From: Candidatus Methylomirabilota bacterium
GTDB taxonomy: Bacteria; Methylomirabilota; Methylomirabilia; Rokubacteriales; CSP1-6
NCBI GenBank assembly: GCA_036556905.1
Contig: DATBIM010000035.1
Span: 1-12,505, forward strand
DNA: 12,505 bases
Reading direction: 5' to 3'
The position numbers were made by a program, and so were the translations under genes. The notes under the pieces are model-generated. The model was not told the origin of the DNA, did not search any database, and saw only the letters and a program-made list of their open reading frames with translations. Positions within the stretch are counted from its first letter, which is position 1. Every line of letters starts with the position of its first letter. This document shows positions 3,928-12,505 of this stretch, piece after piece.

Positions 3928-4875
3928 CTATTTCTTTTCTCGGGGCGTGCCGCGCAGGACGTCTGCGTCCAGGATGAAGTTCTGGCCTGAAGGCAGCATC
4001 ATGACCTGGATCTTGTCGCTCAGCTTCTGAACCATGGCGTAGCGCACGAGCTCGGGCGTGAGCGACGCCGCCAGCTTTCTGTTCGCCTCGGCCTCCTTCT
4101 CGGCCCGGAACAAGATTGCGCTGCCTTCTCCTTTGGCCCGTTCAATGGCCTGCTGGGCCTTGTGCTTTTCCCCCTCGATCTTCTGCTGCTCTTCCAGGGC
4201 GCGCTGGGTGGCGATCTGCTTGTCTTCGATGGCTTTCTTGAATTCTGGATTGAAGTCGATGTTGTCCAGCAGCAAGTCGACCACCTCGATCGAGAAGGGG
4301 GACAGTTCTTTCTCCAGTCGTTCCCGGACGGCCTTTCTGATGTTCTCCCGATTGGGGGCAATCTCGACGCTCCTGTACTTCACGGTTTCATCCTTGAAAT
4401 TCTGAATCACCCTCGATTCGACCAGGACATTGAAAAAGTTGGGGCCGACGGTCCGGTACAGCTCCTGGATGGCTTGCGGAGACACGCGGACATTGAGACT
4501 GGCGCGGACGAAGACATCCTGGCTTTCTTCGCTGAAGGCGTTGAGCTTATCGAACACGCGACGCTGCACCTGGATGTTGGCAAGCAGGACGTTGCGCCAG
4601 GGCGCCACGAACTGCAGCCCCTCGCCAATCTGGCCTTTGATGCCGCCAAATTCATAGACGACGCCGATGTGGCCGGCGGGCACCTGGTGGACGGAGGCGA
4701 ACAACGTGAGCAAGACCATGAGGACCAGGATTCCGACCCTTCCCGGTCCCAGCAAACCGGCCAGGTCGCGCACCCGGGATGGCCCGTAGTCACTGATCCC
4801 GGGCAGGTTTCGTCTGGCGGTGAACAGGAGGACCGCCACCACGGCAAGGACGATCATCGCGAGAATGTACAACAT
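3928..4875 (-). CDS. SPFH/Band-7 (prohibitin/HflC-like) membrane protein
   Basis: N-terminal transmembrane segments are followed by VPAGHIGVVYEFGGIKG...VRASLNVRV...EVVDLLLDNIDFNPEFKKAIEDKQIATQRALEEQQ, i.e. an SPFH core plus coiled-coil. A strong SD AAGGAAGGAG lies 7 nt before ATG 4875. GC is only about 59%. Confidence 0.85.
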   Translation of the reverse strand: MLYILAMIVLAVVAVLLFTARRNLPGISDYGPSRVRDLAGLLGPGRVGILVLMVLLTLFASVHQVPAGHIGVVYEFGGIKGQIGEGLQFVAPWRNVLLANIQVQRRVFDKLNAFSEESQDVFVRASLNVRVSPQAIQELYRTVGPNFFNVLVESRVIQNFKDETVKYRSVEIAPNRENIRKAVRERLEKELSPFSIEVVDLLLDNIDFNPEFKKAIEDKQIATQRALEEQQKIEGEKHKAQQAIERAKGEGSAILFRAEKEAEANRKLAASLTPELVRYAMVQKLSDKIQVMMLPSGQNFILDADVLRGTPREKK

Positions 4876-6930: not shown

Positions 6931-7743
6931 ATGAGCGAGGCGGCGCTCGAGTCGCTGCTCCGTCGCGACCGGCTCGTCGTGAGCGTCGCGCTGGCGGTGC
7001 TGGTCGTCGCCGCCTGGGCCTATCTCCTCTATCTCGCGTCCGCGATGGCGGACATGGCGATGCCCGATATGCCCGGGATGCCGGGCATGGCCATGGCGAT
7101 GCCCGCCATGCATCCGTGGAGCTGGGTGGAGGCGGGTGCGCTTGCCGTCATGTGGGCGGTGATGATGGTCGCCATGATGACGCCGTCGGCCGCGCCGATG
7201 ATCCTGATGTTCGCCACCATCCACCGGCGCCGTGCCGCCGAAGGGCGTGCCGCGGTGCCCACGGCGATCTTCCTCCTGGGCTATTTCGTCGTCTGGACGA
7301 TCTTCAGCGTCGTCGCGGCGCTCGCCCAGACCGGCCTCCACGCCGCCGCGCTGCTCTCGCCCGCCATGGCGGCCACGAGCCCGCTGCTCTCCGGCGGCCT
7401 GCTCATCGCCGCCGGCGTGTTCCAGTGGACGCCGCTCAAGCGCGCCTGCCTCGCCACCTGCCGCTCACCGCTGTCCTTCCTCATGACCAGCTGGCGCGAA
7501 GGCCGCGGCGGCGCCTTCGTGATGGGGATGCGCCATGGCCTCTACTGCCTCGGCTGCTGCTGGGCGCTCATGGCGCTGCTGTTCGTCGCGGGCGTGATGA
7601 ACCTCCTGTGGGTCGCCGCCATCGCGGTGACCGTCCTCGTGGAGAAGGTGGTGCCGGGTGGCGACCTCGTCGGTCGCCTCGCCGGCCTGGGGCTCGTCGC
7701 CGCCGGCGTGCTGCTTCTGGCTCGAGTGATCGTGCCCGCCTGA
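6931..7743 (+). CDS. DUF2182-family predicted metal-binding integral membrane protein with a Met-rich motif
   Basis: It has 6-7 hydrophobic transmembrane segments. Between TM1 and TM2 lies MADMAMPDMPGMPGMAMAMPAMHP, with MxM/MxxM spacing like copper-binding Mets motifs. Conserved C...C and CxxCC features are present: TPLKRACLATCRSP and LYCLGCCW. DUF2182 is a known partner of DUF1326. Confidence 0.7.
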   Translation: MSEAALESLLRRDRLVVSVALAVLVVAAWAYLLYLASAMADMAMPDMPGMPGMAMAMPAMHPWSWVEAGALAVMWAVMMVAMMTPSAAPMILMFATIHRRRAAEGRAAVPTAIFLLGYFVVWTIFSVVAALAQTGLHAAALLSPAMAATSPLLSGGLLIAAGVFQWTPLKRACLATCRSPLSFLMTSWREGRGGAFVMGMRHGLYCLGCCWALMALLFVAGVMNLLWVAAIAVTVLVEKVVPGGDLVGRLAGLGLVAAGVLLLARVIVPA

Positions 7744-7750
7744 TACCGAC

Positions 7751-8722
7751 CTACAGGCTCCTGAGGAAATCGAGCATCGCGGCAGTGACCTCCCGGGGCC
7801 GTTCCTGCTGCGTCCAGTGGCCGCACCCGGGGAGCATGATCGTCTTCCGGAGCTGGGGGACGAATGTCTTGAGGTTCGGGATGAGCTGGTCCATGCCCCG
7901 GAAGGCGACGACGAGGTCCCGGTCGCCGGCGACGTAGAGGGCGGGGACGGTCACCCGCGCCCCGGCAAAGGGCGCCAGCAGCTCCCAGCTGCGGTCGATG
8001 TTGCGGTACCAGTTGAGCCCTCCGCGGAAGCCGGTGCGCGTGAATTCCTTCGTGTAGAAGTCGAGGTCGGCCTCGGACAGCCACGCCGGCAAGGCCGAGG
8101 GCTCGACCAGGCTGCTGAGGAGGCCACCACGCCTCGGCACCAGTCCGACTCGATCGGCATCGGGAAATGCTGCGTCCCCGCGGGGCAGGTCGCCCGAGGC
8201 CGTGTACAGGAGGCAGCGCAGGGAACGACGGACGTCGCGCTCGAGCTCGGCCTCGGCCACGCCCGGCTCCTGGAAGTAGAGCTGGTAGAACAGCCCGTCG
8301 TCGGTCTGGGGCATGACGGTGGTCGGACGGACCCGGCCGCGCGGCCGGAACGGGACGCTGAGAGCGATGACTGCGCGCACGCGGTCGGGACGGAGCAGTG
8401 CGGCGTGCCAGGCCACCGGGGCGCCCCAGTCGTGGCCGACGATCACGGCCGATTCAGCGCCCAGCGCCTCGATCAGGCCGACGATGTCGCCGACGACGTG
8501 CAGCAGCGTGTACTGCTCGATCGCCTGCGGCTGATCGGTCTGGCCGTAGCCGCGCATGTCGGGCGCGACGGCATGGAAGCCCGCCGCGGCGAGCGCGGGC
8601 ACCTGGTGCCGCCAGGAGTACCAGGACTCCGGGAACCCATGGCAGAGGATCACCGCCGGGCCCTCCCCCTGCTCGGCGATGTGCATGCGGATACCGTTCG
8701 CCTCGACGAAGCGATGGATCAT
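7751..8722 (-). CDS. Alpha/beta-hydrolase, epoxide hydrolase-like, 323 aa
   Basis: MIHRFVEANGIRMHIAEQGEGPAVILCHGFPESWYSWRHQ carries the HGFP oxyanion motif. VIVGHDWGAPVAW supplies the Asp nucleophile, NWYRN a cap Tyr, and GCGHWTQQERP the catalytic His. The 773-aa ORF in the track is an upstream frame extension across the neighbouring gene. The real ATG at 8722 overlaps the S41 stop as ATGA. Confidence 0.85.
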   Translation of the reverse strand: MIHRFVEANGIRMHIAEQGEGPAVILCHGFPESWYSWRHQVPALAAAGFHAVAPDMRGYGQTDQPQAIEQYTLLHVVGDIVGLIEALGAESAVIVGHDWGAPVAWHAALLRPDRVRAVIALSVPFRPRGRVRPTTVMPQTDDGLFYQLYFQEPGVAEAELERDVRRSLRCLLYTASGDLPRGDAAFPDADRVGLVPRRGGLLSSLVEPSALPAWLSEADLDFYTKEFTRTGFRGGLNWYRNIDRSWELLAPFAGARVTVPALYVAGDRDLVVAFRGMDQLIPNLKTFVPQLRKTIMLPGCGHWTQQERPREVTAAMLDFLRSL

Positions 8723-10125
8723 CGCGACGGCCTGGCCCCCACCACGTCGAGGGCCCGGCGGAGCTGGGGATCCCGCGCGGGGTCCCAGAGCCACCGGTCT
8801 TCGTCGACGCTGCGGGCGACCTCTACGTCCGGAGTGAGCCCGCGCCGATCGATGGAGCGGCCCGCGGGCGTGAACCAGTGGGCCGTCGTCAGCCTGAGCC
8901 CGGCGCCGTTGGTGAGCGGGATGATGCTCTGGATCGACGCGCGCCCTTGCGTGGTCGTCCCGACGAGCCGGGCGCGCTGCCACTCCTGGAGCGCGCTGGC
9001 CACGATCTCCGCGCCCGCCGCCGTGCCCTCGTCCACCAGGACCACGAGCGGCGCGTCGAGGCTCGGACGCTTGGCGTGGGCGGGGAACCGCACGCTCTGT
9101 TGCGGCGTCCGTCCCTCGGTATAGGTCACCAGCCTCCCCGCGGGCAGAAACAGCTCGGCCACGCCGATCGCCGCCGTCACGGGCCCACCGCTGTTGACCC
9201 GGAGATCGAGCACGAGCGCCCGCGCCCCCGCCGCGCCCAGCGTGTCCAGCGCGGTCTGGACTTCCGGGGGCGTCGAATCCTGGAGCCGACGGATCCGGAT
9301 GTAGCCGACGCCCGGACGAACCACCTTCGACTCCACGCTGCGGGCCCGGCTCGCCTCCCTGACGACGGAGATCTCTCGAGGCTGGGCCCACTCTCGCCGG
9401 GCGACGGTCAGCGCCGCGGCGCTGCCCGGTCTCCCCCAGAACAGGTCGACGGCATCGGTGAGCTTCATGCGCTCGGTCGATACCCCGTCGATCCGCAGAA
9501 TCCGATCGCCCGCGCGAAGCCCGGCGCGGGCTCCCGGGCCGCCCTCGATCGGGGCGACGACCGTCAGGGCCCGGTCGCGCAGCGTGACGTCGAGGCCGAC
9601 CCCGGCCGGTGGGGCGTTCTTGAGCGTCGCGTACCGCGTCGGATCGAGGTAGGCGCCGTTGTCGTCGAGGGCCATGAGGCCCCGGAGCATGGTGGCATTG
9701 AGGTCGTCGACGCTCGTGCCCAGCCGGGTCCGCACGAAGTCCGACGCCCGCTGGACCGCCCGGAGCATATCGGCCGCCGAGGGATCGGGTGGCCAGGACA
9801 GCACGAGCATGGACTCGGGGGACCGTGACTCGCCCTGCATGATCGTCGCGCCGTAGCCACCCTCGACGACGCGGATCGCGCGCTTGGGGGGAATCGCCTC
9901 CAGGCTGCGGAGGGCGGTCAGGCCGAGAGTCTCGACCGGAATCTCGGCCACATGCTGGGCGCGCACGACGGTGATCGCCTCGGCCACGGGCCCACTGGTC
10001 TCTCGGGGCGTCCCCCCGGGCAGGACCACGCGATCCTGATGCTGGCCACCCGTCGTGCAGGCGGCCGCCCACAGCAGGAGCCCCGCCGCGCCTCCGAGGT
10101 AGCGGACCCGTGGTCGCTTCGTCAT
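8719..10125 (-). CDS. S41 (C-terminal processing peptidase/Tsp) family lipoprotein with PDZ domain, predicted catalytically inactive
   Basis: The real start is MTKRPRVRYLGGAAGLLLWAAAC, a lipoprotein-type signal with the ATG at 10125. The PDZ domain is GVGLDV...GLRAGDRILRIDG. S41 core motifs are GYIRI, LDLRVNSGG and VLVDEG-TAAGAE-IVASALQ...TQGRASIQS. The Ser and Lys dyad positions read Ala370 and Arg395. The ATG overlaps the dinB stop as ATGA. Confidence 0.8.
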   Translation of the reverse strand: MTKRPRVRYLGGAAGLLLWAAACTTGGQHQDRVVLPGGTPRETSGPVAEAITVVRAQHVAEIPVETLGLTALRSLEAIPPKRAIRVVEGGYGATIMQGESRSPESMLVLSWPPDPSAADMLRAVQRASDFVRTRLGTSVDDLNATMLRGLMALDDNGAYLDPTRYATLKNAPPAGVGLDVTLRDRALTVVAPIEGGPGARAGLRAGDRILRIDGVSTERMKLTDAVDLFWGRPGSAAALTVARREWAQPREISVVREASRARSVESKVVRPGVGYIRIRRLQDSTPPEVQTALDTLGAAGARALVLDLRVNSGGPVTAAIGVAELFLPAGRLVTYTEGRTPQQSVRFPAHAKRPSLDAPLVVLVDEGTAAGAEIVASALQEWQRARLVGTTTQGRASIQSIIPLTNGAGLRLTTAHWFTPAGRSIDRRGLTPDVEVARSVDEDRWLWDPARDPQLRRALDVVGARPSR

Positions 10126-11216
10126 GACGTCGGCTCCGCCGCCCGCACGAGCTTCTCCGCGCGCACGCCGATCAGCCGGATCTTGCGCTGGCGGGGGTTC
10201 TCGCGGTGATCCAGGAAGGGCAGGAGCAGGCGGACGGCCCCGGTGTAGAGGGCGTTCTCGGTGGTGAGCGGTTCCCGGGGCGTGTGCGAGCGGGTGAAGG
10301 TCATGAAGTTCTCGAAGCGCACGGTCACGGTGACGGTGCGGAAGGCCGAGAAGCCGTGGCCGCCCAGGCGCACGAAGACGCTGCGGGCCAGCTCGCGCGC
10401 GCGCTCCAGCACGAACGCCGCCTCCAGGGTGTCGCGCTCGAACGTCTCCTGCTCGCCGACGCTCTTGGGCTCCCACTCGTTGGACACCGGGCTGTCCGAA
10501 TTGCCGCGGGCCTTGGCGTAGAGATCTTCCCCCCAGCGGCCGAACCAGTCGACGAGCTGGAGGAGCTCGAGGTCACGGAGCTGGCGGACGGTGCGAATCC
10601 CGCGCTCGTGGAGCAGGGCCTCGGACTTGGGCCCGATGCCGGGGATGACCCGGATCCGGAGCGGATCGAGGAAGGCCTGGACCTCGTCCGGGCGCACCAC
10701 GGTCAGGCCATCCGGCTTCTTGAAGTCGGAGGCGATCTTGGCCACGAGCTTGTTGGGGCCCAGCCCCACGGTGCAGGTGAGCCCCTCCTGCGCGACGATC
10801 TCACGCTTGATGGCCAGCGCGCGCTCGGCGGCGGCCTCGAAGGTGGCCAGCGTCGAGAGGTCCAGGTAGGCCTCGTCGATACTGGCCTCCTCGAAGAGAT
10901 CGGCGCGCTGGGCCAGCAGGGCCATGATGCGCTGGGAGACCTCACCGTAGAGCTTGTGGTTGCCCTCGATGAAGACCGTGGCGGGCTCGCCCCGGCGCTG
11001 GGCAGCCTGGGCCAGCCGCCAGGCCCGGGTGATCGGCAGGGCAGACCGGATGCCGTACTTGCGGGCCGCGTAGTTCGCGGCGGTCACCACGCCTCGGCCC
11101 TGCCCGTCCTTGGGGTCGGCGCCCACGACCACCGGCCGGCCCCGGAGCTGTGGGTTGTAGCGCTCCTCGACGGCGGCGTAGAAGGCGTCCATGTCCACGT
11201 GCGCGATGATCCGCAC
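10122..11216 (-). CDS. dinB: DNA polymerase IV (Y-family translesion polymerase)
   Basis: GTG start at 11216. The sequence VRIIAHVDMDAFYAAVE...EASIDEAYLDL...PGIGPKSEALLHERGIRTVRQL is canonical DinB/UmuC. It is 364 aa, and the TGA stop overlaps the next gene's ATG. Confidence 0.9.
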   Translation of the reverse strand: MRIIAHVDMDAFYAAVEERYNPQLRGRPVVVGADPKDGQGRGVVTAANYAARKYGIRSALPITRAWRLAQAAQRRGEPATVFIEGNHKLYGEVSQRIMALLAQRADLFEEASIDEAYLDLSTLATFEAAAERALAIKREIVAQEGLTCTVGLGPNKLVAKIASDFKKPDGLTVVRPDEVQAFLDPLRIRVIPGIGPKSEALLHERGIRTVRQLRDLELLQLVDWFGRWGEDLYAKARGNSDSPVSNEWEPKSVGEQETFERDTLEAAFVLERARELARSVFVRLGGHGFSAFRTVTVTVRFENFMTFTRSHTPREPLTTENALYTGAVRLLLPFLDHRENPRQRKIRLIGVRAEKLVRAAEPTS

Positions 11217-11268
11217 GATGGGCCCACGCTATCGCCGCGGGCCGGCGACGGTCAAGGCCGGGGGCGTC

Positions 11269-11748
11269 TCAGCCGAGGTAGGCTCGGACCAGGTCCTCCT
11301 GGCCTCGCGTCTCCACCGCGCCCGGCACCAGCCGGCGGATCCACACCAGGGCTTCGTTGCCCGAGAGCCCCAGCACCTCGCGGGCCAGGCACGCGGCGAA
11401 CATCCCGGTCCGGCCCATGCCCGCGCGGCAGTGGACGGCGACGTGGCGGCCGACCCGGAGCTCCTCGAGCACCCGCCGCACGTAGGGCCGGATGGGCTCG
11501 CCCTTGCCGGCGGTGAAGTCGCGCATGGGCAGGTGGATCACGTCCAGGCTCCGGCTGCGGTAGAGCCCGATGAGATCGCAGCGGGCCGTGTCCAGGCACT
11601 CCTGCGCTTCGGCCAGGACGACGATCAGCGAGATCTCGTTCAGCGTGAACAGGTCGAGGAGCAGGCCGGCCCGGTCGAATTCGCTGAAGGGCATGGGGCA
11701 CCGGTAGAGCCGGCCGGGCAAATTCAGCGGCAGCTCCGTCAGCGCCAT
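11269..11748 (-). CDS. Dual-specificity / protein-tyrosine phosphatase (CX5R P-loop), 159 aa
   Basis: VAVHCRAGMGRTGMFAACL is the HCxxGxxRT catalytic loop at the position expected for a DUSP fold. AGGGG precedes the ATG at 11748. It is the first gene of the minus-strand cluster ahead of dinB. Confidence 0.7.
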   Translation of the reverse strand: MALTELPLNLPGRLYRCPMPFSEFDRAGLLLDLFTLNEISLIVVLAEAQECLDTARCDLIGLYRSRSLDVIHLPMRDFTAGKGEPIRPYVRRVLEELRVGRHVAVHCRAGMGRTGMFAACLAREVLGLSGNEALVWIRRLVPGAVETRGQEDLVRAYLG

Positions 11749-11757
11749 CGCCCCTAT

Positions 11758-11788
11758 CTTGCCGTGACGGGCAACCCGGGGCGTAGAA
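11758..11788 (+). promoter_or_regulatory. Candidate promoter and operator region for the P5C dehydrogenase gene: TTGCCG-N19-TAGAAT, with a TTGCC-N6-GGCAA inverted repeat
   Basis: TAGAAT lies at 11783-11788, about 25 nt before the GGAGGT SD at 11801-11806. The inverted repeat at 11758-11773 overlaps the -35 region. The region is divergent from the phosphatase/dinB cluster. Confidence 0.3.
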
Positions 11789-11813
11789 TCAAATGCAGCA
11801 GGAGGTACCGGTC

Positions 11814-12505
11814 ATGGCCAACGCCGTGTTCAGCGTCCCCACCCCTCGCAACGAGCCCGCCCTCACCTACGCGCCGGGCACGCCGGAGCGGCCGGCGCTC
11901 CGTGGCCAGCTCCAGAAGATGGCCAGCGAGGTGATCGAGATCACCCCGTGGATCGGCGGCCGTCCGGTGAAGACCGGCCGCGTCGCCGAGGCCACGATGC
12001 CGCACGACCACCGCCACGTGCTGGCCACCTGGCACAAGGCGGGCGCGCGAGAAGTCGAGCGGGCGATCGGGGCGGCCCTGGGCGCGCACGCCACGTGGTC
12101 GCGGATGGCCTGGGCCGATCGCGCGGCGATCTTCCTCAGGGCCGCCGAGCTGCTGGCCGGGCCCTGGCGGCAGGTGCTCAACGCCGCCACGATGCTGGGA
12201 CAGTCCAAGACCGCGCACCAGGCCGAGATCGACTCGGCCTGCGAGCTGATCGACTTCTGGCGCTTCAACGTCCACTTCGCCGAAGAGATCTATCGGCAGC
12301 AGCCGCTCTCGACGCCCGGCGTGTGGAACCGGCTCGAGCACCGGGCGCTGGAGGGCTTCGTCTTCGCGGTGACGCCGTTCAACTTCACCGCCATCGGCGG
12401 CAACCTGCCGACGGCGCCAGCCATTCTCGGGAACATCGTCGTGTGGAAGCCGGCCTCCTCGGCGATCGTCTCGGCGCACTACATCATGGCGCTGCTGGAA
12501 GCCGC
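11814..12505 (+). CDS. pruA: 1-pyrroline-5-carboxylate (L-glutamate gamma-semialdehyde) dehydrogenase, 5' partial; continues past the window end
   Basis: ATG 11814 with a GGAGGT SD 7 nt upstream. The translation MANAVFSVPTPRNEPALTYAPGTPERPALRGQLQKM...FAVTPFNFTAIGGNLPTAPAILGNIVVWKPASSAI resembles monofunctional P5CDH/ALDH4-type enzymes of the Thermus/Bacillus RocA type. It has no stop in the window, which is why it is absent from the ORF track. Confidence 0.85.
   Translation, partial: MANAVFSVPTPRNEPALTYAPGTPERPALRGQLQKMASEVIEITPWIGGRPVKTGRVAEATMPHDHRHVLATWHKAGAREVERAIGAALGAHATWSRMAWADRAAIFLRAAELLAGPWRQVLNAATMLGQSKTAHQAEIDSACELIDFWRFNVHFAEEIYRQQPLSTPGVWNRLEHRALEGFVFAVTPFNFTAIGGNLPTAPAILGNIVVWKPASSAIVSAHYIMALLEA

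Follow-up and report, generated by a model that had tools for sequence, protein, structure and literature searches.

The window analysed in this work is a stretch of 12,505 nucleotides (nt) from a Candidatus Methylomirabilota bacterium, with a G+C content of 70%, and its closest relatives are metagenome-assembled genomes (MAGs) labelled Candidatus Methylomirabilota/Rokuibacteriota. On its minus strand, from position 11748 down to 7751, the open reading frame (ORF) list, direct reading of the sequence and Pfam/NCBIfam matches place four genes one after the other, encoding a small phosphatase, the DNA polymerase IV DinB, a protein with PDZ and peptidase S41 domains, and an epoxide hydrolase. A preliminary description of this DNA had suggested that these genes are a dedicated genotoxic or electrophile-stress module. 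Following our analyses, the best explanation, to which we give a probability of roughly 0.7, is that they form an ordinary lineage-specific operon of soil Methylomirabilota (Rokubacteria), built by stepwise gene accretion, and not a dedicated stress module.

According to this explanation, the oldest link would be the one between dinB and the gene that follows it, which encodes a catalytically dead paralogue of CtpA exported as a lipoprotein, and a gene for a small dual-specificity phosphatase (DSP) stands upstream of dinB in most relatives. A hydrolase gene of the soluble epoxide hydrolase (sEH) type, copied from an abundant family of Rokubacteria, would be a very recent arrival between the S41-like gene and ppoB2, whose convergent stop codons had stood 4 nt apart, and a change of the final S41 codon from CGC to CGA would have created the ATGA junction found there today. 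Such ATGA junctions may allow ribosomes to terminate and reinitiate and, depending on the efficiency of this coupling, the downstream genes would ride on dinB expression.

Gene junctions, hydrolase insertion and conservation of the neighbourhood

The phosphatase gene (11748-11269, 159 amino acids) is the first of the run and is followed by dinB (11216-10122, 364 amino acids, with a GTG start), the gene for the PDZ and S41 protein (10125-8719, 468 amino acids, a predicted lipoprotein) and the gene for the sEH/EphA-type epoxide hydrolase, an alpha/beta hydrolase (8722-7751, 323 amino acids), all on the minus strand. All four genes are functional and under purifying selection, because the ratio of nonsynonymous to synonymous substitution rates (dN/dS) lies between 0.09 and 0.30 (0.14-0.20 for the phosphatase gene, 0.09-0.16 for dinB, 0.22-0.30 for the S41-like gene and 0.28 for the hydrolase gene).

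Both of the ATGA overlaps reported in the preliminary description could be read directly. At 10125-10122 on the minus strand the dinB stop codon TGA overlaps the S41-like start codon ATG (..ACG TCA TGA, with ATG ACG AAG), and at 8722-8719 on the same strand the S41-like stop TGA overlaps the hydrolase start ATG (..TCG CGA TGA, with ATG ATC CAT). A GGAG precedes the S41-like ATG of the first junction by 8 nt, and the identical overlap is found in the relatives L008, L010 and L014; the second overlap is retained in L014 and in three JGI contigs (L176-L178). In the annotated gene tables of the relatives, 4-base overlaps also occur in 2 of 32 unrelated same-strand neighbour pairs, and neighbour genes overlapping by 1 or 14 bases are present as well. 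Overlaps such as the two ATGA junctions of the cluster are commonplace in these genomes and not beyond chance. Translational coupling is possible across a 4-base overlap, which is silent on stoichiometry or common function, and the stoichiometric coupling of DinB to the two downstream proteins, as put forward earlier, cannot be read from it.

The hydrolase gene is found at this locus only in the window, in L014, where it is 90% identical, and in L176-L178, where it is 99% identical, and five sister contigs lack it there (L008, L010, L015 and the P0007 and P0008 contigs). The S41 gene of L010 and L015 ends in TCG CGC TGA, with the reverse-complemented stop codon of ppoB2 following 4 nt later, and in L008 the stop codons of these two genes overlap. 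The 972-nt hydrolase gene of the window and L014 exactly fills the gap between S41 and ppoB2, and the final S41 codon there is CGA. By parsimony on the S41 tree, the hydrolase gene was inserted once, in the common ancestor of L014 and the window. The gene is flanked by neither direct nor inverted repeats, which would be the signature of a mobile element. Rokubacteria hold hundreds of hydrolase orthologues at 77-83% identity, and two orthologues of about 80% identity that were examined on long contigs each stand alone among unrelated genes, behind an upstream spacer of their own.

Perhaps the hydrolase was joined to the dinB-S41 locus only by the assembly, in a chimeric contig, and one contig from Logan could be taken in this sense. 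In L001 (1599-2261) an identical S41 gene is followed by the first nucleotides of the hydrolase gene, about 130 of them (window 8722-8590), and then by a different paralogue, which is 58% identical across the full aligned stretch, and several other Logan contigs stop close to this break point. However, the point at which L001 diverges falls within HGFPESWYSWRHQLPA, a highly conserved stretch, which makes L001 a likelier chimera than the window, and the same arrangement, with a hydrolase of 90-99% identity and then ppoB2, is present in the independent MAG L014 and in the three JGI contigs, which come from different samples. We regard an assembly artefact in the window as very improbable, and L001 is itself probably a chimeric k-mer assembly, not a cassette swap. 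The idea of alternative alleles of a hydrolase 'cassette', which arose from L001, was discarded: L176-L178 share the CAGCTG allele, and past it their hydrolase gene is of the window type.

Conservation of the neighbourhood was examined from the S41, DinB and hydrolase sides. Orthologues of the dead S41-like protein split into a close group of 72-92% identity and a distant group of 39-57%. In L014 (S41 identity 92%) the locus is the same as in the window, hydrolase included. L008, L010 and L015 (82-83%) and the P0007 contig (73%) have pruA, the phosphatase gene, dinB, the S41 gene and the convergent ppoB2 without the hydrolase, and the P0008 contig (72%) keeps dinB and S41 with the phosphatase and hydrolase genes both missing. 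The adjacency of dinB and the dead S41 gene is kept only at S41 identities of at least 72%. No dinB was seen near the distant dead S41 genes of 39-57% identity (L011, L012, L013, L016 and L030), whose neighbours include ABC ATPases, a Zn-peptidase and the end of an alcohol-dehydrogenase-like gene, the last of these read from the translation. Metagenome DinB relatives of 53-76% identity (L094-L108 and L113) have no S41, phosphatase or hydrolase gene in their flanks.

A scan of 185,579 species genomes returned the dead S41 in four species only, all of them Methylomirabilota. The other 76 loci returned encode canonical CtpA with Ser and Lys in other phyla, and dinB lies within 7 kb in none of the 76. 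Among 80 DinB loci, one (L168) has an unrelated, canonical S41 gene nearby. This S41 fragment was rejected as an instance of the same pair: it keeps Ser and Lys, it lies about 800 nt away from dinB, and the organism has a GC content of 58%. Different partners were observed in single contigs of other Rokubacteria, all read from translations. A phosphotriesterase-like gene overlaps the dead-S41 stop codon in L012 (1450-1551), a patatin-like lipoprotein gene overlaps the dinB stop codon in L095 (1576-3213), and an HtrA/DegP protease gene lies 129 nt past dinB in L113 (730-2235).

The dinB/S41 synteny is weak evidence for a functional link, because the clade that shares it is shallow (synonymous divergence, dS, of 0.13-0.35 between the window and L014, L008 and L010) and because the entire neighbourhood of about 12 kb is still syntenic. 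Also collinear in the syntenic relatives are pruA, ppoB2 and the genes for a DUF1326 protein, a GNAT/SCP2 acetyltransferase, an outer-membrane protein (OMP) beta-barrel and an NHL propeller. The remaining synteny means very little, and adjacency that outlasts the neutral decay of synteny, as would be expected of a conserved functional cluster, was not found. Conservation of the neighbourhood had been proposed as a check in the preliminary description; the dinB/S41 pair stands within the close clade but was not seen outside it, and the hydrolase at this locus is not kept even throughout that clade. The same description had named a lack of conservation as the result that would count against it, and a lack of conservation is in good part what was found.

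Several observations weigh against gene accretion as the whole explanation. At least four species-level genomes have the exact ATGA between dinB and the dead S41 gene, the two genes are neighbours back to S41 identities of 72-73%, and a junction kept in this manner would fit selection for co-expression. The hydrolase junction has been retained in two lineages separated by a dS of about 0.17. Polymerases of the DinB/Pol kappa type bypass N2-dG adducts of the kind that epoxides form, which would be a possible biochemical reason for a link. The comparison, moreover, draws on few distant relatives with readable flanks, and many of the contigs are short.

From such observations a dedicated genotoxic or electrophile-stress module can be constructed, in which the hydrolase would clear epoxides, DinB would bypass the remaining adducts, the phosphatase and the lipoprotein would serve in signalling or as an envelope barrier, and the ATGA junctions would fix the ratios of the products. 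The common strand and the two ATGA overlaps are in agreement with it, as are the intact and constrained state of all the genes and the retention of the hydrolase insertion in the window, L014 and three metagenome contigs, and the bypass of N2-dG adducts by DinB-type polymerases is plausibly tied to epoxide chemistry. However, the five sister contigs have no hydrolase at the locus and one of them has no phosphatase either, the distant orthologues are unlinked, with no two components found together outside the shallow clade, and no known LexA box precedes the genes. A protein that is exported and dead, like the S41-like protein, would have no direct action on DinB or on DNA damage, and no operon of dinB with an epoxide hydrolase, or module of this kind, was found in the literature searched. 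We consider a dedicated stress module unlikely.

Taken as an ordinary operon grown by accretion, the cluster is a clean example of operon growth, in which a single gene was inserted exactly at a stop codon and an ATGA junction was created by it. It also warns against reading functional modules into stop/start overlaps, or into synteny when the genomes compared are very close, and it carries little weight for DNA-damage biology.

The S41-like lipoprotein and its neighbours in the run

The product of the third gene matches Pfam families PF03572 (1e-44) and PDZ_6 (PF17820, 2e-12), scores 226 bits against TIGR00225 (cut-off 218.6) and is about 40% identical to Pseudomonas aeruginosa CtpA (E 1e-67). 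Its PDZ domain is encoded at 9603-9394 and its S41 core at 9309-8818, both on the minus strand, and an extra N-terminal module of about 90 residues (approximately residues 45-135) lies ahead of the PDZ. In the alignment with CtpA (7rpq, wild type, and 7rqh, S302A) the position of the nucleophile Ser is occupied by Ala370 (GTAAGAE versus GSASAAE; minus-strand codon 9018-9016) and that of the general-base Lys by Arg395 (QGRAS versus FGKGS; minus-strand codon 8943-8941). Every S41-like orthologue examined, down to 39% identity, has lost the same active site, and among these relatives Gln or His may stand in for Lys instead of Arg. Canonical Rokubacterial CtpA proteins retain Ser and Lys, and the active CtpA paralogue in the same phylum is a separate protein of 427 amino acids. 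Judged by these alignments, the S41-like protein is a non-peptidase homologue whose Ser-Lys dyad is gone, and the earlier suspicion that it is inactive was well placed. The carboxylate-binding loop GVGL of its PDZ domain is retained. An AlphaFold2 model with a mean predicted local distance difference test (pLDDT) score of 73.5 finds CtpA (8sxg) in a Foldseek search at 5e-30, and the modelled fold is that of CtpA.

The N-terminus reads as a signal peptide with a basic n-region and a hydrophobic core, MTKRPRVRYLGGAAGLLLWAAA-C23 (...LLLWAAAC), and the codon of the lipobox residue Cys23 lies at 10059-10057 on the minus strand. The lipobox Cys is common to all full-length orthologues, and in the distant ones it stands in a canonical L-A-A-C or L-V-A-C. 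The protein is predicted to be exported as a lipoprotein and, with its PDZ domain, its signal peptide and the conserved Cys23, it answers to the PDZ lipoprotein of the preliminary description. Its role is most likely in the envelope, as a non-catalytic binder of C-termini or as a lipoprotein that regulates CtpA. The 50-60-residue C-terminal extensions of the P0007 and P0008 proteins were rejected as real protein, being antisense read-through of ppoB2 and an artefact of the JGI gene calls; their peptide recurs in a spurious ORF of the window (7542-8084, minus strand).

A profile of the dead S41 proteins was searched against 1.84 billion representative sequences, and active sites were then mapped in the best 150 clusters. 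Among these best 150 representative clusters (P0241-P0389), 50 are without the Ser and/or the Lys, with Ala/Arg as the commonest replacement, and many of the dead clusters begin with lipoprotein-like signals resembling a lipobox. Catalytically dead S41 homologues thus appear, from their sequences, to be widespread and undescribed, and no characterisation of a bacterial S41 pseudoprotease was found in the literature searched. Because of its purifying selection, its recurrence in many sequence clusters and this absence from the searched literature, the dead S41 lipoprotein family is a lead worth keeping.

Pseudoenzymes that regulate active paralogues are a recurrent theme, and CtpA/Prc proteases are known to rely on lipoprotein partners. 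It is conceivable that within the cluster only the dinB/dead-S41 pair is a functional unit. The S41-like protein would then be an envelope sensor or adaptor tied to DinB, for instance by tethering or inhibiting active CtpA, so that cell-wall remodelling would be linked with damage tolerance, and the phosphatase and hydrolase would be passengers. No other part of the cluster is as old or as constant as the pair, which reaches down to 72% S41 identity and shows the exact ATGA with the upstream GGAG in four genomes, and the constraint on the dead S41 gene given above points the same way. A regulator that is itself a lipoprotein paralogue is also conceivable because P. aeruginosa CtpA needs a lipoprotein partner (PMC8764530, PMC11021448). 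Set against this, the dead-S41 orthologues of 39-57% identity have other neighbours and the DinB orthologues of 53-76% have other downstream genes, shared synteny carries no weight in so shallow a clade, and the two proteins belong to different compartments. A functional pair of this kind seems to us rather improbable. Perhaps, more broadly, the dead S41 proteins are a pseudoprotease class of envelope adaptors or regulators of C-terminal processing proteases, and here the synthesis of one such paralogue has become slaved to dinB translation, coupling envelope remodelling to DNA-damage tolerance, but this extended proposal is a long shot.

DinB has the IMS (PF00817, 4e-41), IMS_HHH and IMS_C (PF11799, 1e-16) domains, and its score of 310 bits against NF002677 is above the curated Pol IV threshold of 256. 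The GTG is the only start that retains the catalytic Asp of HVDMD, and in the alignment with 7yll both catalytic motifs, HVDMDAFYA and SIDEAYLD, are conserved, with the catalytic carboxylates and an aromatic steric gate. By these features DinB is an intact Y-family polymerase, predicted to be cytoplasmic. No QLxLF-type beta-clamp motif was recognised at its C-terminus (...RLIGVRAEKLVRAAEPTS), where an internal or divergent motif is possible, and likewise none was recognised in DinB relatives of 53-76% identity (L094-L106), which have the C-terminus ...RLIG(V/L)R.EKL... In the clade with the S41 gene after dinB, DinB has 6-7 extra residues (AAEPTS), and the stretch that encodes them bears the GGAG and the overlap (10122-10180). 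The NCBI call for L010 (8811-9881) takes the ATG within HVDMD as the dinB start, for a product of 356 amino acids, and the start as annotated would remove the first catalytic Asp. The GTG 24 nt upstream is the plausible start, and it is the one used in the L008 and JGI calls.

The phosphatase matches the Pfam families PTP-SAK (PF22784, 2e-10; 41 bits versus a cut-off of 27) and Tc-R-P (7e-10), and its other Pfam scores are mostly near or below the gathering thresholds. Its nearest solved relatives are Thermococcus Tk-PTP (5z5b, 1e-15), SsoPTP and DUSP23, and alignment to Tk-PTP places the HCX5R(T) P-loop at HCRAGMGRTG and the general-acid Asp in PMRDF. Family match and P-loop together assign it to the small Cys-based DSP or protein tyrosine phosphatase (PTP) group, in keeping with the DUSP-type enzyme announced upstream of dinB.

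The best solved relative of the hydrolase is EphA (5cw2, E 5e-98), with bacterial, plant and human sEH next (about 1e-78 for the human and plant enzymes). Aligned to 5cw2 and sEH, it has HGFP, GHDWGA with the Asp nucleophile, YFQEPG and NWYRN with the two lid Tyr, and GHWTQQE with the His, which indicates an intact soluble epoxide hydrolase, in all likelihood cytoplasmic. The ORF list, the Pfam/NCBIfam matches and the alignments to structural relatives therefore bear out four same-strand genes with the identities first given to them.

Intergenic spacers and flanking genes

The spacer between the phosphatase gene and dinB (11217-11268, minus strand) contains a promoter-like element, with a -35 hexamer TTGACC (11255-11250), 18 nt of spacing and a -10 hexamer TAGCGT (11231-11226) that ends 9 nt before the GTG. 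The 3' 40 nt of the spacer are invariant in five aligned genomes, and a TTGA -35-like element at 17-18 nt spacing is present in all five. A stricter scan with consensus promoters found no promoter, and the divergent spacer between pruA and the phosphatase gene is without a consensus sigma-70 match. Transcription would probably start from TTGACC-N18-TAGCGT, a putative promoter with which the stricter scanner disagrees, and would then yield a near-leaderless dinB mRNA; it may also begin in the divergent spacer. The search for terminators gave a single terminator-like match, inside the S41 coding region and at chance level.

Between the -35-like and -10-like hexamers lies a perfect palindrome, TCGCCG-N5-CGGCGA (11248-11232), invariant in five related genomes. 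By chance, 0.01 exact copies of this pattern would be expected per window; by a rough estimate, some GC-rich inverted repeat of 6 bp is not improbable in a 52-nt spacer of 70% GC. We treat it only as a lead, a candidate operator. The divergent spacer (11749-11813) is about 90% conserved in five genomes and has a palindrome, TTGCC-N6-GGCAA (11774-11759), which is conserved only in part.

The absence of a recognisable LexA box, remarked on from the start, holds for both spacers: none of 14 published consensus patterns, which may not fit Methylomirabilota, matched in 11217-11268 or 11749-11813, and the best candidates had at least 2 mismatches in 8-17 specified positions. The literature searched contained nothing on an SOS system in Rokubacteria, and an Rfam scan of the entire window gave no matches.

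The run is bounded downstream by the convergent ppoB2/DUF2182 gene (6931-7743, plus strand; PF09948, 7e-68), whose stop codon is 7 nt away from that of the hydrolase gene. The upstream boundary is a divergent pruA-like gene on the plus strand, with its ATG at 11814, which was read from the translation; the frame submitted gave no Pfam match, and the gene tables of relatives list an Aldedh-family gene at this position. Further away, the gene at 3928-4875 (minus strand) reads by eye as SPFH/band-7 (prohibitin-like) and has about 57% G+C, compared with about 70% elsewhere. L008 and L010 list no such gene between those for the OMP beta-barrel and the GNAT/SCP2 acetyltransferase, and it looks like a second single-gene insertion in the region.

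Comparison with known systems

In Escherichia coli, the SOS-regulated dinB is transcribed with unrelated passengers in the operon dinB-yafN-yafO-yafP, namely a toxin-antitoxin pair and an acetyltransferase. The cluster described here is similar in that dinB leads a short same-strand operon whose downstream genes are non-polymerase and variable between lineages. It differs in its passengers, which are a dead S41 lipoprotein and an epoxide hydrolase, and in that no LexA box was found.

The S41-like protein resembles the CtpA/Prc proteases (MEROPS S41), represented by P. aeruginosa CtpA with its lipoprotein partner LbcA, in having N-terminal helices, a PDZ domain and an S41 core in the same predicted fold. 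Unlike CtpA, it has Ala and Arg for Ser and Lys, is predicted to be a lipoprotein itself and carries the extra module of about 90 residues.

The phosphatase is like the archaeal-type Cys phosphatases Tk-PTP and SsoPTP and like DUSP23/VHZ, with about 150 amino acids, an HCX5R(S/T) motif and an acid Asp about 30 residues upstream of it. The hydrolase, finally, aligns over its full length with EphA, EphB and sEH (Mycobacterium thermoresistibile EphA, 5cw2, and the C-terminal domain of human EPHX2) and shares all their catalytic motifs. As a protein it is unremarkable next to them, and what is unusual is its lineage-specific position alone, on the stop codon of the S41-like gene.

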